Below, piece by piece: positions 1-58,249 of a stretch of DNA of 64,000 nt (within the stretch, counting starts at the first letter, position 1; every line of letters starts with the position of its first letter). The notes beneath the pieces were generated by a model. It did no database searches. It worked only from the letters and a program-made list of their open reading frames with translations, and was not told the origin of the DNA. The DNA lies in assembly GCA_965202665.1 (NCBI GenBank), contig OZ241841.1, positions 768,001 through 832,000 on the forward strand, written 5' to 3'. Origin of the DNA: Candidatus Spongiisociaceae bacterium. GTDB taxonomy: Bacteria; Actinomycetota; Acidimicrobiia; Spongiisociales; Spongiisociaceae. Both the position numbers and the translations under genes were made by a program.

Positions 1-3000
1 GACGCGGTCGTCGGGGGTGAGGTTGAGGGTGATGTTGGTGGTGGCGTAGTTGGTGTTGGCGGGGATTCTGATATCGAACGGGGCCAGCGTTTGGTAGTCT
101 TCTCCGGCGGTGGCGGTTCCGTTGTTTACGGTTACTCGGATGGTTTTCTGAGCGGTTTGGGTGACGCCGGCCGAGAAGGCGGCTTTCACGGTAACATTTT
201 GGCGGGTTCCTTCGGCGGCTTGGGCGACATCCAGGGAGAGGGTTACGGCGCTTTCGTCGTCGACGAGGGTTAGGGTGTCTTCACCGACGGTGAAGGCGGT
301 CAGGGTGTCGTCGGGGTCGCCTCGTACGGTGATCGTTTCGGGGCTCTCAGGGTCATCGTCGTCGATGGCTTCTAGATCGAAGCGGGCGGTTCCTTGCGTT
401 TGGTAGGCGGGGATGGTAATGGAAGGGGGCGAGGTTACGTCCTTGTAGTCCGTGTCGGGTATGGCAGTGTCGCCGACTTTGGCTACTCCCAGGGGGACGA
501 TCACCGAGTGGGGCAGAGTGTTGGTACCCTGGTAGGCGGCTTTTACGACCACCGGAGTGGTGGCTGTTGTTTCGAATATTTGGGCGAGGTCGGCCCCGCC
601 GGGGGTTTGCAGGGTGATGGTTATTTCATCGGGGGCTTGGTCGTCGTCGGTGATGTTCAGGTTGGCTCCTATAACCGGCAGGGTGGATCCGCCCAGCGTC
701 AGGGTCCCGCCTTCGATGTGGATAGTTTCCGGGTCGGCCCCTTCCGACGCTCCCTCGGCGGTGTTGTCGTCGTTTACCTGCAAGGTTACCGTCGCGTGGC
801 CGCTGGTTTCCCCGGCGGAGATAGCGACGGCTAGGTCGTATCCGGCGGGCGGGGCGGGACTGGTGGGCAGGGTGATGCGGTAATCTTCCCCGGTTCCGAA
901 ACCGGTGGAGGCGGCGGCGGGGGCGGCGGTGCCGTTGGCGATGTTCACTCCTATGACGGCGCCTCCGGCGGGGGCTACCACGGGTATGGAGGCGGTTATG
1001 CGCAGGGTGGTGGTTCCGCTGTCCTCCGCGATGGCGGTCAGGGGGGTTCCGGTGTTGTTGGCCCAGCCCAGAGTCACGCCTTGGTCGACGATTTCCAACC
1101 GGGCGGCGGTAGCGGTCACCGCAGAGCCGTCTACCTGCGCGGTAGCGGTGAGGGAAACCCGTTCGGTGGATTCCCCTGTGCTGTCAGCGCGGGCGACAAT
1201 GCGGAAGGTGGCTGCGCCGCTGGTCCGTCCGGCGGGGATGTTCACCGTCAGCTGCCGGTTGGAAGGCAGGTTGGTGTACCAGTCGTTGCTGGTGCCGTGG
1301 GTGGCGGTGTCATCGGCGAGGGTGACCGTCACCGGAACAGCCGCAGTACGGGCGGAAGAGGCTACGTTGTCGAAGGCGGCGGTGACGGTCACAATGTAAT
1401 GGTTGGGTCTTTCCACCAGCAGATCGGGGGTAGCGCTGATGGTGAGGGCGGTGTCGGCGTCGGCGACCGCCAACACCGCGGAAGCAGCGGCGCCCAAAGC
1501 GGAGGTTCCGCTGATAATGATCGTCTCCCGCCCTTCGGTTATATCATCATGTTTCACAGTCAGCCCAGTCAGGGCCGTTCCGGCGGCAGCGCCGGTCGCT
1601 TGGGCGGGGATGGTCACGGTGTACGTTCCGCTGTTTTGATAGTCGGCGGGACTGACCGCCGTTCCGTCCCCCACGGTGAGCGTCACCGCGGTGGCGGTGG
1701 CGATTTCGGAGGAGGTGGTCCCGGTTTGGAAAGCGGCCGACACGGTAATCCCCGACCCAGTTCCGCCTTCCGCCGCCGCCGCGCTGGCGGTTAGGACTAT
1801 CACCGAGTCGTCGTCTTGAATAGTCAGCGAGGCGGGAGTAACCGACAGACCGGGGGTGGTTCCCCCCACTTGGATGGTTTCCCCCACCTCGGCGATAGCG
1901 TCATCGGTTATACCCAAACCGGTCAGAGCGGTGGAGGAACTGCTGACCGAGCCAGCCGGGATGGTCACCGTTATCTCACTGCCGGCCCCGGGAGCGGTGT
2001 AATCAGCCGCTTCCGTACCAGCCCCCGCCGCGAACGACAACGTTACGACGGTGGCGACCCCGATCTGGGAGGTGGTTCCCGCCAAAGAGGCGGTCACCCG
2101 GGCCGCTCTCCCGTCGCCGTCTTCTTCCAACGCGTCGGCGGTTACGTTCAGAGTTATACCGGAGTCGTTGTCGGTGATATCAAAAGCGGTGTCCACCACC
2201 GCCAGCACGCTCCCGCTCGCCACCGCCCCATCCACGGATATCGTCTCCGCCGCCCCCTCCGCCGCCCGGTCGTCGTTCACCGCCACCACAATATCCGCCC
2301 AACCGCTGACCCGCCCCGCGGGAATGGAAATCCCCATCCCGTAACCCGCCGGCGGGGAACCCTGCGGATAAGAAACCCGAAAATCCTCCCCCGCCCCGAA
2401 CATACTGTCATCATCCAAAGTGGCGGACCCGCCCGTCACGTTCACCCCCACCACCACCGGCGTACTCGACGCGACCGGGAGGGTGGCGGTTACCCGCACG
2501 GTGGTGGAACCGCTGTCCTCCCCCAACCCGGTCAACGCCGACCCACCGCTACTCACCGACAACTCAATGCCCCGATCCACCACGTTCACCACAGCCGACT
2601 CCACATCCACCGCCAAACCCCCCACCATAGCCGAACCGCTCACGGTCAAAGCCTCGGCCCCCTCGGCGACGTTGTCGTCGCGGGCGGTCAACTGGAACGT
2701 TCCGTTAGCCGACAACGACCCCGCCGGAATAGTAACCGTAAACTGGTTGCCCGTCTTATCCGTACAAGCATCCCCCGACGCCTGCGGACACGGCGCAGCC
2801 GCCAACGCCGCGCCCCCCGACGCGCCCGCCACCTGTACCGCCACATCCACCGCCTCCGTCAACACGGTACTGGAACCTTTGAAACGGGCGGTAACCGTAA
2901 TCGTCTGCGCCCCCGCGCCTTCCGCCACCAACGATGGAGACACCGACAAATCCACATCCACGTCATCATCCCCAATAGTCACCGTCGCCGCCGTAACCGC

Positions 3001-6000
3001 CCCCAACGAAGACGTCCCGTTCACCAAAAACGTTTCCGGGCCCTCCACGATCGTGTCATCAACGATTGTCAATCCGGTTAGCGTGGCCGGAACCAACGAA
3101 TAAGAAACAAGCCTATCAGGAGTCCCAGGGGGGGTCGCCATTGGGTCGCTGCCGTCGCCGTCATGGTCAACCTCTGTACCCGGAATGGTGAAAGAATTCG
3201 GCGACGACGGCGCATACGAGAAATCAGCCGCAACCGCCTTCCCCGCCCCCGGAGTCTCCACCGCCGTCGACAAAGCCACCACCACATCCGAACCTACCTC
3301 GTTGACCGTACCCGACCGGAAACTCCCCGACACCGACACCGAACCAGAACCGCCCTCCCAAATCACCGTCTGATCCCCATCAACATCCCCATCAGTATCC
3401 ACCTGCAAAGCAACCCGAGTATCGTATTCGTCCACAATACTGATAATCCCCGCAACAACAGTAAAACCCGCCGGCTCAGCCACCACCACCTCTATCGTCT
3501 CCACCGCCTCCGCCACCGGGCCATACCTATACACCTGCAAAGTGCTAAAAGCCGAAGCAGCCAACGTAGCAGACAAAGAACCAGCCGGAATAGACACCAA
3601 CACCTGACCTAAATTACCATTCCAACGCCAATCACAGCTCACTAACGGACACGGCCCAGTATAATCCAACGCCGTCCCCTCCCGCATCGTCACCCGCAAA
3701 TTGTTCAAACCGGCACTGTAAGCAGAAGCCGTCGAAGCAGTGAACACCCCACCAGACACACCCCCCAAATCAGCTCTAAAACCCACCTGATGAGTAGTAT
3801 AACTGAAACCACCAGGTAAGGGCTCCGTGTACCGATCAACCAAAGGAGACACCCGAATAAACCGATCCTGATCCGCAATCCCCAAACCAGCCGCCACCAC
3901 CCCATACCCAGCAACAGAACCAGTAAACCATATCATCTCCCGATTCTCAGTGATGGTATCCGACAGGGGCGTTATGGTCACATCCGCCGAACCACTCGTG
4001 CCCTGCGCGGGAATAGTAATCGTCGCCGTAGCCGAACTACGAGTGAAATCAGTGTTCAACAGCGCGTCGCCGCCCGACGCGCCCACCATCACCGTTACGT
4101 TCACCGGGGATGCGCCCACCGCCGCCGAAGCAGTAGCCGTTATCCGCACCGTCTGCGCACCGCCATCCTCTTCTACCTCGGTCAACGCGGCCGGGGTTTG
4201 CGCGGTATCAGTCAAAGTGAGCGTGATCGCCTTATCCGCGTCGCGGACCGTCATCGCCGTCCCCGTCACCTCCACCGCCGCCCCCCCCACCGCGGCTGAG
4301 CCTGAAATCGTCAGGCCTTCTTCGTCGTCGGCGGTGGAGTCCTCCCGGGCGGTCAACTGAAAAGAACCGCTCCCCAGCAACTGCCCGGCCGGGATAGTAA
4401 CCGTAAACTGATTGCTCGTTTTGTCGGTACACACATCATCCCCGGTCTGCGGACACACCGCCGACGACACCACCGCCCCACCCGACGACGCCGCCGCAAC
4501 AGTCACCGTCACAGCAGTATCCGCAGTCAACACCGAGCTGGTCCCCGCGAAACGGGCGGTAACCGTAATCGTCTGCGCCCCCGACCCCTCCGCTACCACC
4601 GCCGGGAACACCGACAACGAAATATCAGCATCATCATCGGCGATAACCAACTCCCCCGAAACGGGATGCCCGGCACCCAGACTGGAAGTACCGCCAAACG
4701 CTATCGTCTCCGGACCCTCCACAATCGAATCATCCACCACCGACAAACCCGCCAACGTCCCCGAAGAACTCTTCAACCCAGACACACCCACCACCGGAGG
4801 CGTAGCCATAAGATCCTCCGCCACCTTAACAGGAATGGTAAACGACAGCGGCGACGGCGGAGCGTAATCAAAATCGGCGTCGCCCGCCTCCCCCGCCTCC
4901 GGTTCCGTATCTTCTTCGATAGTAAGAGTGGCCGTGACCGGCGTCGTGTGACGGGTAGCGGTGACTCCGGAGGGCCATCCCGCCCATACTTCCACTCCTG
5001 TGCCGGAAGCACCCTCCGCTATTTCGGTCTGGTTGCCCATAGTGTTGCCGTCGGTGTCCACCCTGAACACCACCCGCGAATCCGTCACGTCCCGCACCTT
5101 AATCCAGGCTCTTTCCTGAGTGAACCCCGCTGGAAGCGTCCTCGCTCCCAGCCGTTTAATCGCCTCATCCGGATCCGCTGTGTTGTTTACCTCGACGGAA
5201 TGTGATATGTCTTGCGAAGCGGTGAGTGAACCAGACGGAATATTAAAATATTTCCTCAAATAAAACAAATAACTTTCCCAGTCATATACGTGATATCTAG
5301 CAATAGTTCTAGTATTTTGGCTATTGCCAGAACCTTCAGGGGACCACGCCTGCAAATTCATATTGGAACTGTAAGTAGAGGACGTGGAAGGAGTGAACAC
5401 GCCGCCGGAGGTGCCTCCTAAAGTAGCGGTGCCATCCGAAACAACCGAGCTACGGCGGGAAGCCCACTCGTCAATCGTGTCCGGGTTCAAAGTGAACTTG
5501 ATAACCCGGTCTTGGTCGATGATCTGTAGATCGGCTGGTACTACCGCATACCCCGTAGCGGCGCCCGCGAAGCGGATAGTTTCGTGATCTTCAGTGACCC
5601 TGTCCTGCACGGGGGTGATGGTTACGTCGGCGGTTCCGCTGGTGTCATTCGCCGCGATGGTCACCGTTGCCTCCCCGGCGCTGCGTAGATAGTCCCCTAG
5701 CGTTCCCAAGGCGGCGGTGCCGCCTGTGGCGCCTACGGTGACTGTTACGTCGGTGTCGGCGGTGGGGGCCGTCCCGACGGTGGCCACCACCCGCACCGTC
5801 TGCGCGCCGCCGTCTTCTTCCACTGCGGTTAGCGCGGCGGGGGTTTGGGCGGTGTCAGTGAAACTCAACGTAATCGCCCGCCCCGGATCCCGCATCGACA
5901 TTTCGGTTCCGGTGACCGTAGCTGTTGCGCCGCCGACGGTGGCGGAGCCGGTTACCGTCAGTTTCTCATCATCGTCGGCGGTGGTGTCGTCGCGGGCGGT

Positions 6001-9000
6001 GAGCTGGAAAGTAGCGGCGCCGCTGGTTTCCCCGGCGGGGATGGTCACGGTCAGCTGGCTGCTGGTCAAACCGGTAACGCACACATCAGTGGTGGAGGAG
6101 GGGCAGGCGGCCAGGGTGGCACCGTTGCTGGACGCGGAAGCGACCGTCACCGTCACGTCGGTGGCGGCGGTCAGGGCGGAGGTGGTTCCCGCGAAAGCGG
6201 CGGTAACCGTTATCGTCTGCGTACCCGAGCCTTCCGCTACTGAGGCGGGGAACACTGACAGCGTGATGTCGTCGTCGTCGTCGACGATGGTTATAGTAGC
6301 GGGGGTGGCGTCGCCTAACGGGGAAGAACCGCTAATGGTAATCGTCTCCGGCCCTTCCACAATCGCGTCGTCGGTGACCGTCAACCCGGTTAGGGTGGCG
6401 GTGGCTGAGGGGGTGGCGTTGTTAGCGGGGAAAGTGATGGTATTGGGCGTGGCCGGGGTGTAGGTGAAGTCGGCGGCGACGGCCTTCCCGGCTCCGGCCG
6501 GGGTGGGGGCGGCGGCTGATAGGGTCACGTTGGTGGCGGAACTAATGACTGAGGTGGTGGCGTTGTAGTAAGCGGCGGAAACGGTCACACCGGAACCGGT
6601 AGCGCCTTCCGCCAGCGTGGTCTGGGTTCCCGTCGCGCTGTCAGTGTCCACGGTTATCGCTATCTGGTTGGAGTCTTGGATGGTGATCGTCTCCCTGACC
6701 GCGGTCCAACCGGAGGGAACGGCGGGACGGAAGTAAAATATCTGATCCGGTTCCGCCACCGTGTCCTTCAAAACAGCAACCACCGGAACCGCGGTGGGAG
6801 CGTACACTATATTCACATTACCGGAAAGGGCCCCCGCGTTTATAGTCACCTCCAGCGGGTCGTCCGCCTCGCCGTGCTCATGGAAGATATCGTCGGTAGT
6901 GCTAGTCTGGCCGCCCACGGTGGCCGTCCCCGCATCAACCCGCACCCGCATCCCCAAATTAGAACTGTAAGTAGAAGAGGTGGAGGGGGTGAACACCCCG
7001 CCCGACACCCCGCCCAAAACAGCCGTCATACCCCGGAAAAACTTGAGAATGCCATTATACTGGTTAGTCAACGCCTCCCCCTCCCTAGGCTCCCGCACCA
7101 CCAGATCCCCCTCCGCCGCCATCACCTTCACCGCCCGATCCTGATCCTGTATCACCAAATCATTCGCCACCACCGCATACCCAGTGGCTGAACCGGTGAA
7201 CCGGATAATCTCCAAGTCTTCGGTGATGGTATCCGACGCGGGGGTGATAGTCACATCCGCCGTCCCGCTGGTATCGTTGGCGGCGATCGTCACCGACACC
7301 CTATCCGCACTCGACGAATAATCCCCCGCCCCAGCCGTAGTACCCTCCGCCCCCACCACCACATCCACCACCACCGCCGACGTCGGCGCCACCGGCGCAG
7401 AAGCCACCACCCGAATCACTTTAGCCCCCCCATCCTCCCCCACATCCACCAACGGAACCGGCGTAGAAGCAGTGTCAGTAAAACTCAACGCGATGGACCG
7501 GCCCGGATCGTAAATCGTCAACTCCGTCCCCTCCACCACCGCCGCCTCCCCCCCGATAGCGGCCGCGCCGGATACGGTCAGGTCCTCGTCGTTGTCCGCC
7601 GCGTTGTCGCTACGGGCGGTCAGCATAAACGACCCAGACGCCTCAACGCTCCCCGCCGGGATGCTGATAGTGAACTGGTTGTTGGCCTGGTCGGTGCAAG
7701 CATCCTCAGAAGTAGCCGGACACGCCGCCGCCAACGTAGCCCCCAGTTGCGATCCCGCTATGGTGGCCGTCACCGCCGTCGCCGCGGTCAACGCGGAAGT
7801 TTCTCCCCGGAAACGGGCGGTCACCCCGATCCGCTGAGCGGCGGCCTGCTCCAACACCTCCGCCGGGGAAACCAGCACATCTATCACCGCGTCGTCGTCG
7901 ACGATAGCCAACGAACCCGACACCGCAACCCCGGACGCGTCCGTTCCGCCCAACGTCAACCGCTCGGGTCCTTCCACGCTGGCGTCGTTTGTGATAGTAA
8001 GACCAGGAATAGTGCCGCTTACTGAGGTGGAACCAGCCGGGATGGTCAACAACACCGGAGCAGGCGACGGATAAGAAAAATCAGCCGTCCCCGCACTATC
8101 AGCCCCCACCGACGTTAAAGACACCACCAGCGGGTCGGTCAACTCCGACGACCCCGCCGGCAAAAAGGCTTCCACGCCCACTGTTCCGTCTGCGTCCTCC
8201 GACACGCTCCCCCGCAACCCAGGACGGCTGTCATCATCCGTCACCGTCATCAACTGAGGATCCGCCCCGAAACCCGCCGGAAGGCTGGAAATGGTCATCT
8301 GATAAGTCTCATCCCCCTCCGCCACGTCATCCACGCAACTCACCAACTGCACCGTCGCCGTCCCCGACGTGGAACCAGCCGCGATGGTTATGAACTCCCA
8401 AGCGGTGGGCATGGTGTCCACCGCGAACCCATCCGACGAATAATCCTGATTATAAGTAGCCGTACCATCCACCGTCCGCACCCGCCCCCGCACATTACTA
8501 CCCAACGTCGAGGAGGTAGCCGCGGTGAACACCCCCTCCGCCGACAACCCACCCAGGCGGCCGGTCACCGTCCTGGAAAACGGAGCGGAAGTCATACACT
8601 GGCTGCGGGTGGCCCAGCCCGACTGCGGATCCCCACCCTCCCCGTACGACGCCTCCCCCTCCCCCACCCCTATCCCCACCGTTCGGTCCTGGTCGGTGAT
8701 TTCCAAATCAGCCCCCCGCACCGCATACCCCCCCGCCGAACCCCCGACGCGGATCGTCTCGTTCTCTTCTGATATGGTGTCCTCCAACGGGGTGACCGTC
8801 ACATCCACCGACCCGCTCGTCCCTCCCGACGGAATAGTGATCGTCGCCGGATCCGACTTTGCGTAATCCCCTCCCGTGCAAACCTCGTTCTGCCCCGACC
8901 CCGCGCACGACTGCGGATCAGCCGAACCCCCCGCCGCGCCCACCGTCACCGACACCACCGTCTCCGCCGACACCGCCGCCGGAGCAGTAGCCGTCACCCG

Positions 9001-12000
9001 CACCACCCGCGCCCCCCCGTCCTCCCCCACCGCCGTCAACGCCACAGGAGTTTGCGCGGTGTCGGTCAAAGACAAATCAATCGCCTGCCCCGGATCAAAC
9101 ACGCTAATCTCCGCGGACGCCACCGCCACCGCCGCGCCCCCCACCGACGCCGTCCCCGACAACACCAGCCCCTCTCCCCCCTCCGCGTTGCCGTCGTCCC
9201 GGGCGGTCAGCCGCAACGTCGCCGACCCGCTGGTGGCGCCCGCCGGGATGGACACCGTGAACTGATTATTGGTCTTGTCGGAACACACGTCTCCACTGGT
9301 CTGCGGACACACCGCCGACGACAACACCGCCCCACCCGACGCCGCGCTCGCCAACGTCACCGTCACATCAGTCGCCGCCGTCAAAACGGAACTGCTCCCC
9401 CTAAAAGCCGCCCTCACCGTGATCGCCTGCTCCCCGGCTCCTTCCAGCACCGACGACTCCGACACCGTCAAATCAATATCCGCATCATCATCCACAATCG
9501 TCACCGAACTATCCGCCGCCGACACCCCCGCCACCCCCGTAACCACCCCCGACAAAACAAACGTCTCCGGACCCTCCACCACACCATCATCCACCACCGC
9601 CAACCCCCCCAACGCCGCCGACCCCGACACACTATTAGCCGCCACCGAAACCGTGTTCGGGGAAGCGGGCGCATACGTGAAATCAACCGCCGACGCCACC
9701 CCCGCCCCCGGCGCACCCAACCCCGCAGACAAAACAACCGAAGTCGCCGACCCGATCGTAGACGAACCCGCCGAAAACGCCGCCACCCCCACCGCCCCCG
9801 ACAACGACTCCCCCTCCCGCAACGGCTGCACCCCAGTTGTTCCCCCATCAGCGTCTATCGACAGATTAAGCGCCGAATCCGGATCTGTGATATACACGTT
9901 GGGATTCGGCGACAAACTATAACCCGCTACCTGGCTGTTCCCCCACTCAAAACGGAAATCCTCCGTACCCTCCGCCTTATTATCAGCATAAAAGTTGAAA
10001 GGCCACGTCACCGACCCCGACACCGAACCAGCCGCGATGGAAATATCCCTAAAAGAAAAGCCAATCTGATAAAAATCATCTACATTGCCTTGATCGTCCT
10101 CCTGCGTCGCCGACTGGTCCCGAAAATACAACCGCGAAGTAAAACTACTGCTATGAGTGCTGGACGTCGACGGAACAAACACATTATCAACCATCTGCCC
10201 AAACCGGGCCGTCAACCGCATATCATTACGGGTATTGCCCGACGCAGGCTCCGCTACCGTCGACGGCGACACGCTCAAATCCACATACCGATCCCCATCA
10301 TTAATAGTCAACATCGCCGGAGCGACCACCCACTGCGAATTGGAGCGACCCCAAAACACCACCGACTCCCCATCCTCCGTCACCGTATCATCATACGTAG
10401 TGATCGTCACATCCCCCACCGTCGCCATCGAATCACTCGGCTCCATACGAACAGTCACCTCCCCCGTGCTCCGCCCGAAATCCCCCGTGCACACCCGGCT
10501 CTGACCCGAACCCGAACACGACCCCAACGTAGCCGAACCCCCCACCGAACCCGGCGTCACCCACACCACCCTCGAATACCGCGACTCCCACACCGACTGC
10601 CACGACCCGGCCATAGTAGCCCGCACCCGCACCGCCTTCCCAACCCCCTCCCCCACCGATGACAACCCCGCCTCCCCGGTCGCCGTCTCATGCAACGACA
10701 ACCCAATCACCTTCGGATGAGCCGCGTCGTAAATCTGAAAACTCGTACTCGACACATCCACCGACCTGCCCCCCACCGACGCCGTCCCCGATAACGTTAC
10801 CCCCTCCACCCCCTCCGACGCGCCCCCCTCATCCCGCGCCGTCATCGCAACCGTCGCCGACCCGCTCAACTCCCCCGCCGGGATCGTCACCGAAAACGAA
10901 TTCCCCGCATCAGTACAAACATCCCCGCTCGTCTGCGGACACGCCCCCGACGACACCACCGCCCCATTCGTCGTCGACGACGCAAAACTCACATTCACCA
11001 CCGTATCCGACGGGATCACCGAACGAACCGCGTCCCTAAACCTCGCCGTCACCGTCACCGGCTGCGGAATATCACTCTCCGCGAACGCCGAAAAAGAACT
11101 ATTAGACGACGACACCGACAACGCAATGTTCGTATCATCATCCACAATCGTCACCGGCGCCCCCGACACATAACCACGATCCACCGTCACATAAAACACC
11201 TCCGGTGGCTCCGCCACTCGATCCCCCACCTCCGACAAAGCCTGAAACCTAACATCCTCAACCGAATCCGACGCAACCCACGGCCTAATACCCACCAAAC
11301 GCCGATTCGCCAACACCGCATTATTAAAATGCGCAAACTCGTAATCGCGTCTCTCATCCGTCACCCCCGACACCACCCCCTTCGCCGTACCATCCACCGC
11401 CCTCACCTGCACATCCCCCACACTAGCAGAAGTCAAATTAGCCGTAACAGGCACAAACACCCCACTCGACGTATCCCCCCAACGCAACGACACCGTACCC
11501 GACTGACCCACCCCCGCCATCCCCTCACTAACCTCACTAACAGAATACGCCACCCCCAACCTACGATCCCGATCCGCAATACTCAACCCCACCTCAGTAT
11601 TCGCATACGAAAACCCACTAACTTTAGCCCAATCATAGAGTTTTATCTTAAACGACTCATAATACTCCCGCACCGTATCATCCACCATCCTCAACGTAAA
11701 ATCAATCTGTTTATGAGTGTCTCCACTACCCCAATTAAACCACGAATTGTCTGTGATATGATCATTCCAATTACTAGCAGATGTACAACAGTTACCATGC
11801 AAACCAAACTGATAATCCACATGACGAGTAGCACCACCAGCCGTATTAAAAAACGCATCACCACCTTTATGCGCCGCAGGCGAAATATTCACATGAAGCC
11901 GCAACTGCAAATCCCCATCATTCTCAGCAACAGACGAAACCGGATTATTACTCCGATCCGTAATACTAAACGAAACAGTCGGCACCTGCCCCACCACCCC

Positions 12001-12105
12001 CACCGGAACCAACGGCAACAACCCCACCACCAACACCACCGCCAAACCCAACCCCCACACACGCCCCCACACCCCACCGAACCCAACCCCGGACATCCGC
12101 CCCAT
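1..12105 (-). CDS. Giant secreted Calx-beta/Ig-like repeat surface protein (adhesin), >=4035 aa, 3' end outside window
   Basis: ATG at 12105 follows GGAGG. The N-terminus MGRMSGVGFGGVWGRVWGLGLAVVLVVGLLPLVPVGVVGQ is signal-like. The same frame near base 1 reads NGTATAGEDYQTLAPFDIRIPAN (Calx-beta-like motif). The track lists no minus-strand ORF terminating in this frame, consistent with no stop before the window edge. Spot translations at 5221-5400 and 9241-9360 are open. Confidence 0.9.
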   Translation of the reverse strand, partial: MGRMSGVGFGGVWGRVWGLGLAVVLVVGLLPLVPVGVVGQVPTVSFSITDRSNNPVSSVAENDGDLQLRLHVNISPAAHKGGDAFFNTAGGATRHVDYQFGLHGNCCTSASNWNDHITDNSWFNWGSGDTHKQIDFTLRMVDDTVREYYESFKIKLYDWAKVSGFSYANTEVGLSIADRDRRLGVAYSVSEVSEGMAGVGQSGTVSLRWGDTSSGVFVPVTANLTSASVGDVQVRAVDGTAKGVVSGVTDERRDYEFAHFNNAVLANRRLVGIRPWVASDSVEDVRFQALSEVGDRVAEPPEVFYVTVDRGYVSGAPVTIVDDDTNIALSVSSSNSSFSAFAESDIPQPVTVTARFRDAVRSVIPSDTVVNVSFASSTTNGAVVSSGACPQTSGDVCTDAGNSFSVTIPAGELSGSATVAMTARDEGGASEGVEGVTLSGTASVGGRSVDVSSTSFQIYDAAHPKVIGLSLHETATGEAGLSSVGEGVGKAVRVRATMAGSWQSVWESRYSRVVWVTPGSVGGSATLGSCSGSGQSRVCTGDFGRSTGEVTVRMEPSDSMATVGDVTITTYDDTVTEDGESVVFWGRSNSQWVVAPAMLTINDGDRYVDLSVSPSTVAEPASGNTRNDMRLTARFGQMVDNVFVPSTSSTHSSSFTSRLYFRDQSATQEDDQGNVDDFYQIGFSFRDISIAAGSVSGSVTWPFNFYADNKAEGTEDFRFEWGNSQVAGYSLSPNPNVYITDPDSALNLSIDADGGTTGVQPLREGESLSGAVGVAAFSAGSSTIGSATSVVLSAGLGAPGAGVASAVDFTYAPASPNTVSVAANSVSGSAALGGLAVVDDGVVEGPETFVLSGVVTGVAGVSAADSSVTIVDDDADIDLTVSESSVLEGAGEQAITVRAAFRGSSSVLTAATDVTVTLASAASGGAVLSSAVCPQTSGDVCSDKTNNQFTVSIPAGATSGSATLRLTARDDGNAEGGEGLVLSGTASVGGAAVAVASAEISVFDPGQAIDLSLTDTAQTPVALTAVGEDGGARVVRVTATAPAAVSAETVVSVTVGAAGGSADPQSCAGSGQNEVCTGGDYAKSDPATITIPSGGTSGSVDVTVTPLEDTISEENETIRVGGSAGGYAVRGADLEITDQDRTVGIGVGEGEASYGEGGDPQSGWATRSQCMTSAPFSRTVTGRLGGLSAEGVFTAATSSTLGSNVRGRVRTVDGTATYNQDYSSDGFAVDTMPTAWEFITIAAGSTSGTATVQLVSCVDDVAEGDETYQMTISSLPAGFGADPQLMTVTDDDSRPGLRGSVSEDADGTVGVEAFLPAGSSELTDPLVVSLTSVGADSAGTADFSYPSPAPVLLTIPAGSTSVSGTIPGLTITNDASVEGPERLTLGGTDASGVAVSGSLAIVDDDAVIDVLVSPAEVLEQAAAQRIGVTARFRGETSALTAATAVTATIAGSQLGATLAAACPATSEDACTDQANNQFTISIPAGSVEASGSFMLTARSDNAADNDEDLTVSGAAAIGGEAAVVEGTELTIYDPGRSIALSFTDTASTPVPLVDVGEDGGAKVIRVVASAPVAPTSAVVVDVVVGAEGTTAGAGDYSSSADRVSVTIAANDTSGTADVTITPASDTITEDLEIIRFTGSATGYAVVANDLVIQDQDRAVKVMAAEGDLVVREPREGEALTNQYNGILKFFRGMTAVLGGVSGGVFTPSTSSTYSSNLGMRVRVDAGTATVGGQTSTTDDIFHEHGEADDPLEVTINAGALSGNVNIVYAPTAVPVVAVLKDTVAEPDQIFYFRPAVPSGWTAVRETITIQDSNQIAITVDTDSATGTQTTLAEGATGSGVTVSAAYYNATTSVISSATNVTLSAAAPTPAGAGKAVAADFTYTPATPNTITFPANNATPSATATLTGLTVTDDAIVEGPETITISGSSPLGDATPATITIVDDDDDITLSVFPASVAEGSGTQTITVTAAFAGTTSALTAATDVTVTVASASSNGATLAACPSSTTDVCVTGLTSSQLTVTIPAGETSGAATFQLTARDDTTADDDEKLTVTGSATVGGATATVTGTEMSMRDPGRAITLSFTDTAQTPAALTAVEEDGGAQTVRVVATVGTAPTADTDVTVTVGATGGTAALGTLGDYLRSAGEATVTIAANDTSGTADVTITPVQDRVTEDHETIRFAGAATGYAVVPADLQIIDQDRVIKFTLNPDTIDEWASRRSSVVSDGTATLGGTSGGVFTPSTSSTYSSNMNLQAWSPEGSGNSQNTRTIARYHVYDWESYLFYLRKYFNIPSGSLTASQDISHSVEVNNTADPDEAIKRLGARTLPAGFTQERAWIKVRDVTDSRVVFRVDTDGNTMGNQTEIAEGASGTGVEVWAGWPSGVTATRHTTPVTATLTIEEDTEPEAGEAGDADFDYAPPSPLSFTIPVKVAEDLMATPPVVGVSGLKSSSGTLAGLSVVDDSIVEGPETIAFGGTSSLGAGHPVSGELVIADDDADISLSVFPAVVAEGSGAQTITVTARFAGTSSVLTADTAVTVTVAAASSGGAVVSSAVCPQTGDDVCTDKTSNQFTVTIPAGQLLGSGSFQLTAREDSTADDEEGLTISGSAAVGGAAVEVTGTAMTVRDADKAITLTLTDTAQTPAALTEVEEDGGAQTVRITATASAAVGASPVNVTVMVGASGGDALLNTDFTRSSATATITIPAQGTSGSADVTITPLSDTITENREMIWFTGSVAGYGVVAAGLGIADQDRFIRVSPLVDRYTEPLPGGFSYTTHQVGFRADLGGVSGGVFTASTASAYSAGLNNLRVTMREGTALDYTGPCPLVSCDWRWNGNLGQVLVSIPAGSLSATLAASAFSTLQVYRYGPVAEAVETIEVVVAEPAGFTVVAGIISIVDEYDTRVALQVDTDGDVDGDQTVIWEGGSGSVSVSGSFRSGTVNEVGSDVVVALSTAVETPGAGKAVAADFSYAPSSPNSFTIPGTEVDHDGDGSDPMATPPGTPDRLVSYSLVPATLTGLTIVDDTIVEGPETFLVNGTSSLGAVTAATVTIGDDDVDVDLSVSPSLVAEGAGAQTITVTARFKGSSTVLTEAVDVAVQVAGASGGAALAAAPCPQASGDACTDKTGNQFTVTIPAGSLSANGTFQLTARDDNVAEGAEALTVSGSAMVGGLAVDVESAVVNVVDRGIELSVSSGGSALTGLGEDSGSTTVRVTATLPVASSTPVVVGVNVTGGSATLDDDSMFGAGEDFRVSYPQGSPPAGYGMGISIPAGRVSGWADIVVAVNDDRAAEGAAETISVDGAVASGSVLAVVDTAFDITDNDSGITLNVTADALEEDGDGRAARVTASLAGTTSQIGVATVVTLSFAAGAGTEAADYTAPGAGSEITVTIPAGSVSSSSTALTGLGITDDAIAEVGETIQVGGTTPGLSVTPASLTIQDDDSVIVLTASAAAAEGGTGSGITVSAAFQTGTTSSEIATATAVTLTVGDGTAVSPADYQNSGTYTVTIPAQATGAAAGTALTGLTVKHDDITEGRETIIISGTSALGAAASAVLAVADADTALTISATPDLLVERPNHYIVTVTAAFDNVASSARTAAVPVTVTLADDTATHGTSNDWYTNLPSNRQLTVNIPAGRTSGAATFRIVARADSTGESTERVSLTATAQVDGSAVTATAARLEIVDQGVTLGWANNTGTPLTAIAEDSGTTTLRITASIPVVAPAGGAVIGVNIANGTAAPAAASTGFGTGEDYRITLPTSPAPPAGYDLAVAISAGETSGHATVTLQVNDDNTAEGASEGADPETIHIEGGTLTLGGSTLPVIGANLNITDDDQAPDEITITLQTPGGADLAQIFETTATTPVVVKAAYQGTNTLPHSVIVPLGVAKVGDTAIPDTDYKDVTSPPSITIPAYQTQGTARFDLEAIDDDDPESPETITVRGDPDDTLTAFTVGEDTLTLVDDESAVTLSLDVAQAAEGTRQNVTVKAAFSAGVTQTAQKTIRVTVNNGTATAGEDYQTLAPFDIRIPANTNYATTNITLNLTPDDRV
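1260..10960 (-). repeat. ~1.6-kb (~540 aa) intragenic super-repeats, 6-7 copies
   Basis: The motif CPxxxxDxC...(F/L)T(V/I)xIPAG recurs at ~10930, 9290, 7710, 6090, 4440 and 2780, with a Cys-less version at ~1290. The (GG)VF(T/V)x(S/A)T(S/A)S motif recurs at ~10160, 8530, 6985, 5390 and 3745. Confidence 0.85.
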
Positions 12106-12194
12106 CACCAACCTCCAAACTCTCCAACGACGAACCAATACCAAACCCGCCGCCGCAACAGGCCACCGAACCCACACAGAGCCCAGCACCCAAA

Positions 12195-12222
12195 ACCCTA
12201 ACCCCCCCCCCCAATATGTCAA
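12195..12222 (-). promoter_or_regulatory. Sigma-70-type promoter of the adhesin: -35 TTGACA (12222-12217), 16-nt spacer containing G11 (12212-12202), -10 TAGGGT (12200-12195)
   Basis: Perfect -35 and a TANNNT -10, about 90 nt upstream of the ATG; read directly from the sequence. Confidence 0.7.
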
Positions 12223-12250
12223 ACCGCCGCCCACGCCCAGCCGCTGAAGC

Positions 12251-12851
12251 GGTTCTTCGCGTTTGAGGGGGGAGTAGGGGGTTGGGGGGTATTGAGGTGG
12301 TGGGGGCGTAGGAGACAGTTGAGGGCCTGCTGGTGGGGGTGCGATTGGAGGGGAGACCGCGGTGCGGGGGCGGGGTGTTGAGTAAGGGTTGGAAGAGGGC
12401 GCGGTTGGTGGATCAGCCTAGTTTCGGCCGGTCGGTGATTCTGGAGTGGCGGAAACACCGGGGGCGGTGTCCTGATGCGGGGTGCGGGTGGGGTCGTTTA
12501 CGGAGCAGGACCCGCGGATAGCCCCAGTGCGAGCCCGATTGACCACGCGGGCGGGTAGGTGGGCGACATGGCAGGTGGGTCGGGGGCGGACGGTGGAGGA
12601 GGAGGAGGAGGAGGAGCTGGTTTGCTCGTGGCATACCGCGTCCAAGGAGGTGAACCGGTGGTCCAAGCAGGAGAACTCCACAGGGAAGTACGCGACGCAT
12701 GGCACGCTAAAGAAACGTACCAGGAATCTACCAAACCAACCACCCCCCCGAAGGCGACAAATACATCCGCCTGCTCGCCGCAGACCTCCAAGACCAACCC
12801 TGCTCCCCCGAAGTCAGCCAACTCGGACCAACCTCGGCCTCAAGCGTAAGC
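12251..12851 (+). pseudogene. Internally deleted, frameshifted ISL3-family transposase remnant
   Basis: The left end GGTTCTTCGCGTTTGAG resembles ISL3 termini, with a degenerate complement at ~12839-12851. Fragments in several frames match ISL3 segments: RLVDQPSFGRSVILEWRKHRGRCPDAGC, SFTEQDPRIAPVRARLTTRAGRWATWQVGRGRTV, EVRDAWHAKET and DLQDQPCSPEVSQLG. Confidence 0.8.
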
Positions 12852-20679: not shown

Positions 20680-21627
20680 TTACAGTCTGGAGGTTGGTGG
20701 TTTGCCTCCGAGGCTGTAGCGGGGTCGGTGGTTATTGTAGTAGTGGAGCCAGTGGCGGAGGGCTTGGTTTCGGGTTTGGTTGTCGGGCCAGGGTTGGGAG
20801 TTGGCCCATTCGCGTTTGAGGGTTTGGTTGTATCGCTCCACTTTGCCGTTCCGCTGGGGATGATACGGTCTGATCGTGATATGACGGATGTCGTGCTGGG
20901 CGAGCAGGGAAGCGAACGCTCGGCTGCGGGTGTAGCTCCAGTGGTTGTCGGTCATGATCTCCGCGATGTGGGTTATGCCTAGTTGGCGGAAGTGGTGGAG
21001 GGCGCGGGCGGTGAACGCGGCGACGGTGGTTCCTTTCTCGTCTGATAGCGTTTCGGAGTAGGCGAGGCGGGTGTAGTCGTCCACGATGGAGTGCACAAAG
21101 GTCCATCCCGCTCCGCTGGCGGGGGCGTTGCCCCGGCCGTGTACCTTCCATCCCCCGCCGGGCGGTATGGAAGAAAGCTTCTTAACGTCCATATGCAGCA
21201 ACTCACCAGGCCGTTCCCGTTCATACCGCACCACCGGCCCGGGAGGGGTTTTGAGCGGTTCGCCGGTCAGCAGGTCGCATTCCCACAGACGCAACACTCC
21301 GCGGCGGCGGAGGATGCGGCTGATCGTCCGCTCCGGCACCCCCGTAAACGCCGACAACCGAGCGGGCCCCGCCCGCAACCGCCGCCGCGCCCGCAGCACC
21401 AGCTCTTCCACCGCCGGGCTGGTACGCATAGGGGAACAACGCGGCCGAGACGACCGGTCCTCCAAACCGGCCTCGCCTTCCTCCCGGTAACGGCGCACCC
21501 ACTTGGACACGCACTGCCGAGACAGGCCCATTCCCCGAGCCACCCGCGCCACCGGCTCCCCTTCTTCTATCACCCGCAACACCATCCCCAAACGTCCCAA
21601 AGGCGACGACCTCGCGTTACCATGCAT
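20680..21627 (-). CDS. IS481-family DDE transposase
   Basis: MHGNA start, HTH, RYERERPGELLHMDVKKL, VDDYTRLAYSE, MTDN and PQRNGKVERYN motifs. Confidence 0.95.
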   Translation of the reverse strand: MHGNARSSPLGRLGMVLRVIEEGEPVARVARGMGLSRQCVSKWVRRYREEGEAGLEDRSSRPRCSPMRTSPAVEELVLRARRRLRAGPARLSAFTGVPERTISRILRRRGVLRLWECDLLTGEPLKTPPGPVVRYERERPGELLHMDVKKLSSIPPGGGWKVHGRGNAPASGAGWTFVHSIVDDYTRLAYSETLSDEKGTTVAAFTARALHHFRQLGITHIAEIMTDNHWSYTRSRAFASLLAQHDIRHITIRPYHPQRNGKVERYNQTLKREWANSQPWPDNQTRNQALRHWLHYYNNHRPRYSLGGKPPTSRL

Positions 21628-35997: not shown

Positions 35998-36977
35998 CCG
36001 GCCCGAGGGCGACTGCTCCGGAGGGCGGCGAAAGGGGGTAGATTTGGGGCGTTCGGGAGGAGAAGCCCGCAATGTTCTAATCGTAGAACAGTAGGCGGAG
36101 GGGCGGCAGGTCGTAAACATCCGCCCGCTGCCACCCCCCCCCCCGTCCGCTACCCGGCGGGAATCCCGCCCCTCGGACCCGGCGGATGGTCGTCATCCCC
36201 CTGGATTCGGCGACTCGGCGGGATGATGTCGCAATCCCCTATCGGAGTAAAGGAATCCCTCCGGCCTGGACGGGCGGGCGGGTTATCCTCCCACCGCCGT
36301 TTGTCCTGCGACCGAACCGAACCCCGGCGGGAATCCGGGAATCATCCCCCGGCGGGATGACCGCCGCCAAGTCCTGCGACCCGCCGCCGTTCGTCATTCG
36401 TGGATTCCGAACCGCCCGCCCGGTCGGTCGCCGTCATCCCAAACAGGCTACGCAGTTCGTCCCGAACCGCCGCCTGCGTCTCCGCCAACTCGGCGGGCGA
36501 CAGGTTAGCCGCCGCCCCTTCCCGGATAGCCGCCCATCCGTCCGTAGTCGGATAATGGCCGCCCACTTCCTGGATGATGGCATTTAATGCCGCCGCCAGT
36601 TCGGCGGGCGACATCCCGCAGTTCGGGTCGTTAATCGGGTTCGTCATCATTCCCCCTTTTCCTAGTTATCGGAATACCCTACCCCCGAATTAAACAGTAT
36701 GGTGGATGGTCTAACAAAGCCTGATTTTCAGACACCTCTGATGATTACTTACAACCACAGGCTGTACCGTGGAATAGATAAGCACCAGGCACCAGAGCAG
36801 ACAGCACAGGATCGTCAGTGTCAGTATCAGGGTCATACGCGGGATCTGCTTTGGCCTGCTTTGTTGTGTGGTTCTGGTTCAGGTCCCGCCCTGCTGTCCT
36901 GCTGGATCCGGCCCGGGGGCGCCTGCTCCGGAGGGTGGCGAAAGGGGGTAGATTTGGGGCGTTCGGGAGGAGGAGCC
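35998..36977 (+). repeat. 70-bp imperfect direct repeat (35998-36067 / 36908-36977, 66/70) flanking an ~840-bp insert
   Basis: CCGGCCCG(A/G)GGGCG(A/C)CTGCTCCGGAGGG(C/T)GGCGAAAGGGGGTAGATTTGGGGCGTTCGGGAGGAG(A/G)AGCC occurs twice. Confidence 0.9.
36342..36650 (-). CDS. Orphan 102-aa protein with internal SPAELA repeat
   Basis: AAGGGG RBS; lies inside the repeat-flanked insert. Confidence 0.55.
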   Translation of the reverse strand: MMTNPINDPNCGMSPAELAAALNAIIQEVGGHYPTTDGWAAIREGAAANLSPAELAETQAAVRDELRSLFGMTATDRAGGSESTNDERRRVAGLGGGHPAGG

Positions 36978-57198: not shown

Positions 57199-57316
57199 TT
57201 GCGTCATTTTAGCCCAGAGCCGGGTTTTTGGCGCGCAACCGAATTTCCAGATTTTGCCAATTTTGCGATAGGTGATATTTTGCCGTAGCCATGGGACGGA
57301 GAGAGGGGCGCAGAGA

Positions 57317-58249
57317 GTGACAACACTGGCGCGGGAGGCATTGCCCACCACCGATACGGTAGGGCTTTACTTTGAAGAAGTATCGGCCCACGAACTGTTG
57401 ACCGCCAACGACGAAGTGGATCTGGCCCGCACCATGGAACAGGGCCTGCTGGCCCAAGAGAAACTGGACGCCGCCAAACAGCTGAGCAACACCCAGAAGA
57501 TACGGCTCCGCCGCCAGGTGACGGACGGCCGGGACGCCAAGGCGGTGTTCATCAAGTCCAACCTGCGGCTGGTGATCTCCATCGCCAAACGTTACAGCGG
57601 GCGGGGAATGGACCTGACCGACCTGATCCAGGAGGGCAACCTGGGGCTGATCCGGGCGGTGGAAAAATTCGACTGGCGGAAAGGGTTCAAGTTCTCCACC
57701 TACGCCACCTGGTGGATCCGCCAAGCCATCACCCGCGGACTGGGAAACCAGTCGCGCACCATCCGCCTGCCGGTGCATATGGCCGACATCGTGCGCACCG
57801 TCAACGAAACCTGGCACACCCTGGCCGACCAGCTGAGCCGTCATCCCACCCGGCAGGAGGTCGCCGAAGCCAGCGGGCTGGACATCGAACGGGTGAACGC
57901 CGCCATGGACTCGCCCACCAACACCATATCCCTGGACCGGCCGATGAACGACGACGGGGACGCCACCTTGGGGGACTTCGTGGAAGATCAGACGGCCACC
58001 GACCCGTTCGCCCACGCCGCACTGTCCCTGCGCCGGGGCTACATCGACCAGGCGCTGGAGGTGCTGGAACCGGAGGAGCGGCTGGTGATCATCCTCCGCT
58101 ACGGCCTAGACGGCAAAGACCCCCGCACTCTGTCCGACGTGGGGGCCAACTTCGACATAACCCGCGAACGGGTCCGCCAGATAGAAAACCGCGCCCTGGC
58201 CAAACTGCGCCACCCCAGCTGCCCCCACGACCTGGGCCACCTCCTCTAG
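57317..58249 (+). CDS. RpoD/SigA-family (group 2-like) sigma factor
   Basis: NLRLVISIAKRY, DLIQEGNLGL, KFSTYATWWIRQ and TRERVRQIE motifs; lacks region 1.1. Confidence 0.93.
   Translation: MTTLAREALPTTDTVGLYFEEVSAHELLTANDEVDLARTMEQGLLAQEKLDAAKQLSNTQKIRLRRQVTDGRDAKAVFIKSNLRLVISIAKRYSGRGMDLTDLIQEGNLGLIRAVEKFDWRKGFKFSTYATWWIRQAITRGLGNQSRTIRLPVHMADIVRTVNETWHTLADQLSRHPTRQEVAEASGLDIERVNAAMDSPTNTISLDRPMNDDGDATLGDFVEDQTATDPFAHAALSLRRGYIDQALEVLEPEERLVIILRYGLDGKDPRTLSDVGANFDITRERVRQIENRALAKLRHPSCPHDLGHLL

Follow-up and report, generated by a model that had tools for sequence, protein, structure and literature searches.

The question raised by this locus is whether a run of eleven G residues inside a promoter sets the expression of a giant surface protein. 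The window is a stretch of 64,000 nucleotides (G000:C1:768001-832000) from G000, a genome assembled as a single 2.77-Mb contig with 64% GC. The giant gene lies on the minus strand at window positions 1..12105, with its ATG at 12105; its frame of 4,455 aa extends 1,263 bases past the window edge and ends at G000 766,738. The predicted promoter, of the sigma-70 type and about 90 nt upstream of the gene, consists on the minus strand of a -35 hexamer TTGACA (12222-12217), TATT (12216-12213), the G11 tract (12212-12202), a single T (12201) and a predicted -10 hexamer TAGGGT of the TANNNT type (12200-12195). The tract, which has G11 and G12 alleles, is thus the bulk of a spacer of 4+11+1 = 16 nt. 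A preliminary description had read TTGACA-TATT-G11-T-TAGGGT with a 16-nt spacer on the minus strand, and this reading was confirmed. Judging from the position of the -10 hexamer, transcription would start at 12187..12189 (minus strand). A Shine-Dalgarno-like GGAGGT (12116-12111, minus strand) is located 5 nt before the ATG and is identical in both paralogs of the gene. TAGGGT fits TANNNT and agrees with TATAAT at only three of six positions; the site is absent from a generic promoter scan because the scan scores against TATAAT. The leader RNA has a fold z of -2.3. About 55 bp upstream of the -35 box is the end of an internally deleted ISL3 remnant (12278..12835), which matches a longer copy at G000 388-389 kb with 82-88% identity; the longer copy encodes an ISL3 transposase. 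Elsewhere in the window are an IS481-family transposase (20680-21627, minus strand), a second G11 run that is intergenic and has no TTGACA ahead of it (36134-36144, minus strand), and a sigma-70 group 1/2 factor (57272-58249, plus strand) that is nearest to mycobacterial SigB/SigA and Streptomyces HrdB. This affinity and the presence of NucS mark the uncultured, sponge-associated source as a likely actinobacterium; a weak hint in the same direction is that the sole trigger-factor relative with a class name was an Acidimicrobiia protein at 40%.

The giant protein is predicted to be a wall-anchored surface fibre. Its N-terminus is signal-peptide-like, as judged by eye, and a repeat-end motif is matched 28 times in it, at intervals of about 100-300 residues, a Calx-beta-like spacing. 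A Gly/Pro linker follows, and then a C-terminal SLH region that scores above the Pfam cut-off; Calx-beta scores below it. For residues 40-780, the look-alikes in the Atlas belong to Calx-beta and LapA clusters, with scores of 0.90-0.93, and provide a lead. From this content of repeats and anchor domain we infer a role as an adhesin. The gene has two paralogs, of 4,455 and 4,473 aa, whose promoters are near-identical and carry G11 (at 2,217,500) and G12 (at 2,454,376), respectively. GGAGGT-ATG and a signal-peptide-like start, located downstream of the tract, are common to all three paralogs of about 4,450 aa. The paralogs are 51-100% identical to the giant protein depending on the segment, and the nearest partner switches along the gene, that is, the genes are mosaic. 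GC skew changes sign several times within the giant gene (window 1-12105), in keeping with segments exchanged among paralogs. A tRNA-Ser gene precedes one paralog promoter (G000:C1:2217376-2217465) and a matching tRNA 3' piece precedes the other (about 2454250-2454340), hinting at duplication through the tRNA. In the sister species of the same genus, G001, the giant gene is missing at the syntenic locus and has no ortholog there; that locus is simpler, without the giant gene. Downstream of the giant gene in G000 (G000:C1:763000-766600), an NYN-domain gene and the end of the upstream membrane-protein gene are present as broken tandem copies.

The promoter is one member of a genome-wide family and not a lone site. 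G000 contains 24 TTGACA/poly-G/TANNNT promoters, with spacers of 15 (8 promoters), 16 (11) and 17 nt (5). Downstream of them are 14 proteins with C-terminal SLH, nine with N-terminal SLH and one methylase-HNH gene; six SLH proteins were scanned with Pfam and the others were assigned by phmmer with their SLH regions. Most of the tract promoters thus stand before SLH proteins of 1,175-4,470 aa, and FG-GAP was found in two of the three N-terminal-SLH-type proteins scanned. Among the 49 SLH-type frames of G000, a long tract lies upstream of 27 of the 35 that have at least 1,150 aa (23 with a G spacer and four with a C tract) and of none of the 14 that are shorter. G001 has 42 such sites. In all 41 that were examined the tract, G11-G19, fills the spacer between the -35 and -10 hexamers, and the spacers are 15 (19 sites), 16 (15), 17 (2), 18 (2), 19, 22 and 23 nt. 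Two other genomes with the design, G004 and G009, have five and three sites, respectively, with TTGACA ahead of the run. TANNNT follows the run at 72 of these 73 sites (24 in G000, 41 in G001 and eight in G004 and G009). There are 13 different -10 hexamers among them in which T, A and the last T are fixed, and such retention of TANNNT is the conservation expected of a working -10 box. The shortest tract among the 73 promoters is G11. The G run is retained in two genera while the adjoining bases diverge. These promoters multiplied by duplication and hence are not independent origins.

We also searched for the design more widely. Of 28 other genomes searched in the family, 25 gave no match to the TTGACA/poly-G pattern; this is not read as absence because most of these assemblies are probably fragmented (contig numbers were seen for four). 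A pattern scan of JGI metagenome contigs gave no stretches, and a protein-based scan gave two distant loci with 28% identity. A GTDB-wide pattern scan gave at least 125 stretches, with many phyla among the matches listed, from which only the existence of the motif elsewhere, and not its frequency, can be read. The complete MAG chromosomes with TTGACA/poly-G/TANNNT in the matches listed include ones from Dehalococcoidia, Promineifilaceae, Spirochaetia and Tepidiformaceae.

A census of homopolymers revealed that long G/C runs form a class of their own. G000 has 865 G/C runs of 7 nt, 96 of 8, one of 9, none of 10, 24 of 11, 28 of 12, 14 of 13 and nine longer. This distribution is bimodal; 75 runs of at least 11 nt were observed versus about six expected from the decay of short runs, while there is one G9 versus 63 expected and no G10 versus 17 expected. 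A/T runs of at least 11 nt show no excess (1 versus 1.1 expected). TTGACA, which occurs 492 times in the genome, lies within 7 nt ahead of 24 of the 75 long runs; chance expectation is about 0.05 by arithmetic, in which paralogs are not independent. G001 has no G9 or G10 and 81 runs of at least 11 nt, so that the two genomes together have a single G9, no G10 and 156 long runs. Three genomes of a second, neighbouring genus do have G9 and G10. This suggests a genus-specific length floor, and the absent G9-G10 class is a testable clue to slippage bias in an organism with NucS only. Of 24 other genomes in the family, 21 have runs of at least 11 nt; in the order's other families, three of 15 published genomes have them, one unpublished genome being left out of the count.

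The long runs are concentrated at particular genes. Sixty of the 75 are at surface-protein or restriction-modification genes: 24 are in the spacer promoters, six are C runs at large surface genes and 30 are at restriction-modification or helicase genes. The other 15 of the 75 are unclassified. The 30 tracts are in or at methylase, type I, type ISP, Eco57I-like, DUF1156, DUF4007 or helicase genes, and several of these genes are split at the tract. Other large surface genes, three of which encode 8,000-12,700 aa, have the six C runs ahead of them or at their start. G000 therefore shows the feature by which a phasome of the Campylobacter/Neisseria type is recognised, i.e., an excess of long G/C runs that cluster in surface and restriction-modification genes, some of which are split at the tract. 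C12-C13 runs at G000:C1:1172644, 1652180, 2390131 and 2167818 are upstream of 10,400-, 8,080- and 12,700-aa genes and of a 1,537-aa LRR/Calx-beta gene, and at least two of these sites resemble -35/C-run/-10 promoters with 18-nt spacers. At G000:C1:1215758-1232900, three tandem type ISP restriction-modification-like genes carry 11 G11-G13 tracts, several of them in the 3' specificity region, and two of the genes appear split at a tract; one of the three was scanned and the other two were assigned by similarity and position.

Which spacer length does this genome prefer? Tract-free intergenic matches to TTGAC[ACT]..TANNNT in G000, with intergenic regions set by our own rough gene calls, number 3, 13, 29, 31 and 15 at spacers of 15-19 nt, and a control with reversed hexamers gave 5, 6, 8, 2 and 12. 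Ordinary promoters thus peak at 17-18 nt, and 15-nt spacers are not enriched among them (3 versus 5 in the control). A one-base change at the locus moves the spacer from 16 to 17 nt, onto the preferred length. Two tract-free paralogs carry fixed 16-nt spacers. This suggests that 16 nt is probably usable and not silent, and that the difference in output between 16 and 17 nt may be small. As to repair, MutS_V has no match in G000 (94% complete; control 11/14) and NucS is present. In M. smegmatis, NucS leaves indels of 1-2 bp unrepaired (PMC11551767), and frequent frameshifts at long runs have been described in mycobacteria (PMC10159617).

Tract length was followed in public sequencing data. At least half of the sampled words are found in each of 14 public runs, which include four with the label sponge metagenome and four with the label marine metagenome (X10 and X7 are one run of each), and no RNA run was among the matches listed. 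Five runs were compared as k=31 contigs, not reads; contigs drop rare alleles and the platforms are not on record. The sole length change listed at the tract in the five runs is +1 base, and no G10 or G13 allele is listed in their contigs, from which rare alleles are dropped. The G11 form is found in contigs of X3 and X7 and is therefore not an assembly artefact. In X7, left and right pieces specific to the window (depths 41.2 and 46.2) are bridged by a G11 arm of 49 nt (12.7) and also by G12 arms of 40 nt (13.9) and 38 nt (12.9). Hence G11 and G12 stand at about 1:1 between locus-specific flanks, and the arms sum to about 60% of the flank depth. In the same run the first paralog keeps only G12, and its tract-spanning depth looks low. 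Stutter or dropped alleles may account for these depths. A k-mer model with both alleles at the locus and without the second paralog predicts pieces of 88, 78, 49, 40 and 38 nt and a right piece that starts at 12202; all six of the compared lengths or start points match. If G12 is instead given to the second paralog, the model expects a start at 12203 together with pieces of 33 nt and, from the paralog, 70 nt; none of these three is among the 8 of 9 X7 records listed. The assembly DNA may come from X7, although several flank positions are different there; X1 and X3 are further possible sources.

In X10, the downstream flank of the window type continues without a break through G12 (10.6) and the flank of the second paralog through G11 (17.6), which is the reverse of the assembly, with both lengths in one run. 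In X6, G12 arms have depths of 306-353 and the only G11-spanning piece listed has 3.8 (8 of 16 records). X3 is broadly like the assembly (G11 at 85-90, G12 at 77.5); its piece lengths (78 and 62) are also those expected if the first paralog had a minor G12 allele, and one X3 length is explained by neither model. X1 and X3 are uninformative on variation within the locus because the G12 paralog shares the 31-base context. In summary, across samples with near-identical flanks the tract is G11 in the assembly and X3, G12 in X10 and mainly in X6, and both in X7. Strain mixture or sequencing stutter is a possible source of the G11/G12 mix in X7; strain mixture gives the same contig picture as switching within a lineage.

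We consider it quite probable that the tract mediates slipped-strand phase variation of the porA/tp0126 type, in which G11 (16 nt) and G12 (17 nt) interconvert between a predicted lower and a predicted higher output. Replication slippage would change the run by one base, from G11 to G12 and the spacer from 16 to 17 nt, and such small indels would go unrepaired, as in mycobacteria, if NucS without a MutS match has the same consequence here. The primary sigma factor would read the site, and output would track the length of the spacer, lower at 16 nt and higher at 17 nt. The tract would act as a heritable, reversible dimmer on the giant surface protein. The preliminary description had proposed such a spacer-length switch, with 17 nt at G12 as the optimum. 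The tract in 24 promoters, the G11/G12 variation and the 17-18 nt preference of ordinary promoters in G000 support both proposals, and its suggestion to look at tract length was taken up with contigs, in which G11 and G12 occur across samples and within X7. The G10 state with a 15-nt spacer that it also envisaged was not seen; there is no G10 run in G000 or G001, and only the +1 allele is listed in the contigs of the five runs, from which rare alleles drop out. Two listed lengths and no promoter tract below G11 make a narrow range for a graded rheostat. Spacers of 15-16 nt are found in 19 of the 24 promoters in G000 and in 34 of 41 in the sister genome, so that each cell would strongly express only part of the repertoire.

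The G run might be an inherited, mutable but functionally neutral spacer that was copied with the duplicated promoters, with 15-17 nt about equally good. The paralogs share flanks and are mosaic, and the fixed 16-nt spacers in the two tract-free paralogs also agree with this idea. However, G8-G10 are depleted genome-wide and the long runs are mostly (60/75) at surface and restriction-modification genes. In addition, the run is kept in two genera despite the divergence of neighbouring bases, and ordinary promoters are not enriched for 15-nt spacers. We therefore regard a neutral spacer as unlikely. Could the G-rich stretch act mainly through a G-quadruplex, either as a regulator of transcription or as a trigger of gene conversion between paralogs, the length change being incidental? 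Gonococcal pilE has a G-quadruplex that is tied to gene conversion in antigenic variation. At this locus, a canonical four-run motif predicted by sequence, G11-TTA-GGG-TTTT-GGG-TGCT-GGG (12182..12212, minus strand), spans the spacer, the -10 box and the predicted start site, and the mosaic identity of the three paralogs of about 4,450 aa would suit gene conversion. Nevertheless, the motif is present in just three of the 73 promoters, those of the three paralogs, whereas the -35/run/-10 geometry is present in 72; a mechanism of the pilE type would call for the motif at all variable loci. This makes the G-quadruplex very unlikely as the main function, although it could be an added layer at this locus.

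A third alternative is that the tract is a translational frameshift switch, since an open frame leads from a GTG at 12234 across G11 into the gene and a one-base change would disrupt it; in the G11 paralog the frame is likewise open through the tract, and in the G12 paralog it is closed. This is highly improbable, because the upstream GTG lacks a clear ribosome-binding site, the 43-residue extension is not conserved (the upstream DNA of the paralogs is tRNA-Ser or tRNA-like), a large frame spans the tract at only six of 24 sites, and the shared GGAGGT-ATG start lies downstream of the tract in all three paralogs. It is equally hard to believe that the tract is in fact fixed and that errors in sequencing or assembling a long homopolymer produced the different lengths, since, for all the unrecorded platforms, the reduced tract-spanning depth in X7 and contigs that are simplified graphs, X10 keeps both lengths at different flanks in the reverse of the assembly, the X7 paralog keeps only G12 while the giant-gene locus keeps both, and long A/T runs are not inflated in the assembly.

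With slipped-strand phase variation as the preferred reading, a larger picture can be drawn tentatively, and we hold it to be possible rather than probable. In this picture, a sponge symbiont keeps a bank for antigenic variation in the style of pathogens: one promoter design, copied onto 23-40 large surface proteins, is set such that the commonest tract lengths, G11-G12 and never less in this genus, place the majority of copies at 15-16 nt and a shifting minority at 17 nt. Each cell would show a random small subset of mosaic fibres, as long as 4,500 aa, that gene conversion reshuffles, and some 30 further tracts would switch restriction-modification genes. If true, diversifying pressure from sponge immune cells or phages would be comparable to that on human pathogens. 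The 24-42 spacer-tract promoters and the roughly 30 restriction-modification tracts of this uncultured, sponge-associated lineage suggest that diversity of the surface and of phage defence is strongly selected for in an early-branching animal host. Tract length per molecule would also serve as a DNA-only readout of which surface proteins are likely turned up in a wild symbiont population. We found no description of phase variation in sponge actinobacteria in the open-access literature.

Phase variation by promoter tracts is a textbook mechanism, known mainly from pathogens and mucosal commensals of vertebrates; here the mechanism is already known, and the host and the scale are unusual. The vlp system is a multigene family of a handful of lipoprotein genes with one poly-A tract per gene, and the family described here is like it in that each surface gene of the family has its own tract, which is poly-G instead of poly-A. 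In fim, a poly-C tract lies between an activator site and the -10 hexamer, unlike the poly-G within the -35/-10 spacer here. Both vlp of Mycoplasma hyorhinis and fim of Bordetella pertussis are surface-protein genes switched by promoter repeats (PMC3899988). Among actinobacteria, espA of M. tuberculosis is the nearest case as described in the cited source; an intergenic tract, a 7-base poly-A beside a start site rather than in a -35/-10 spacer, alters transcription with an effect of about 40% (PMC10334774). The espA, glpK and espK tracts of M. tuberculosis are shorter and not repeated over a gene family, unlike the long spacer tract across a family here. Mycobacterial repair with NucS only leaves small indels uncorrected (PMC11551767, PMC10159617). 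In Treponema pallidum, promoter poly-G is found at several surface genes, tprE/G/J/L, with lengths that vary within isolates; the tprL run has 7-11 G and does not change the -35/-10 spacing (PMC7864442). T. pallidum tp0126 has poly-G between -35 and -10, as here, with best transcription at 17 nt (PMC7864442). The differences from T. pallidum are that no promoter run here is shorter than 11 and that one design is repeated over a large paralog family. In Neisseria meningitidis porA, poly-G also lies between -35 and -10, one-base changes alter transcription and 17 nt is optimal (PMC3899988, PMC7864442). The present locus is like porA in having a poly-G spacer in the promoter of a surface protein, here a predicted one. 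It is unlike porA, a single outer-membrane gene of a pathogen, in that 24 predicted promoters (42 in the sister genome), mostly before SLH proteins, share the design in an uncultured, sponge-associated bacterium without a MutS match. The features of the porA/tp0126 type that are found here are a homopolymer between the hexamers, a one-base shift to the preferred length, length variation and a predicted surface target.
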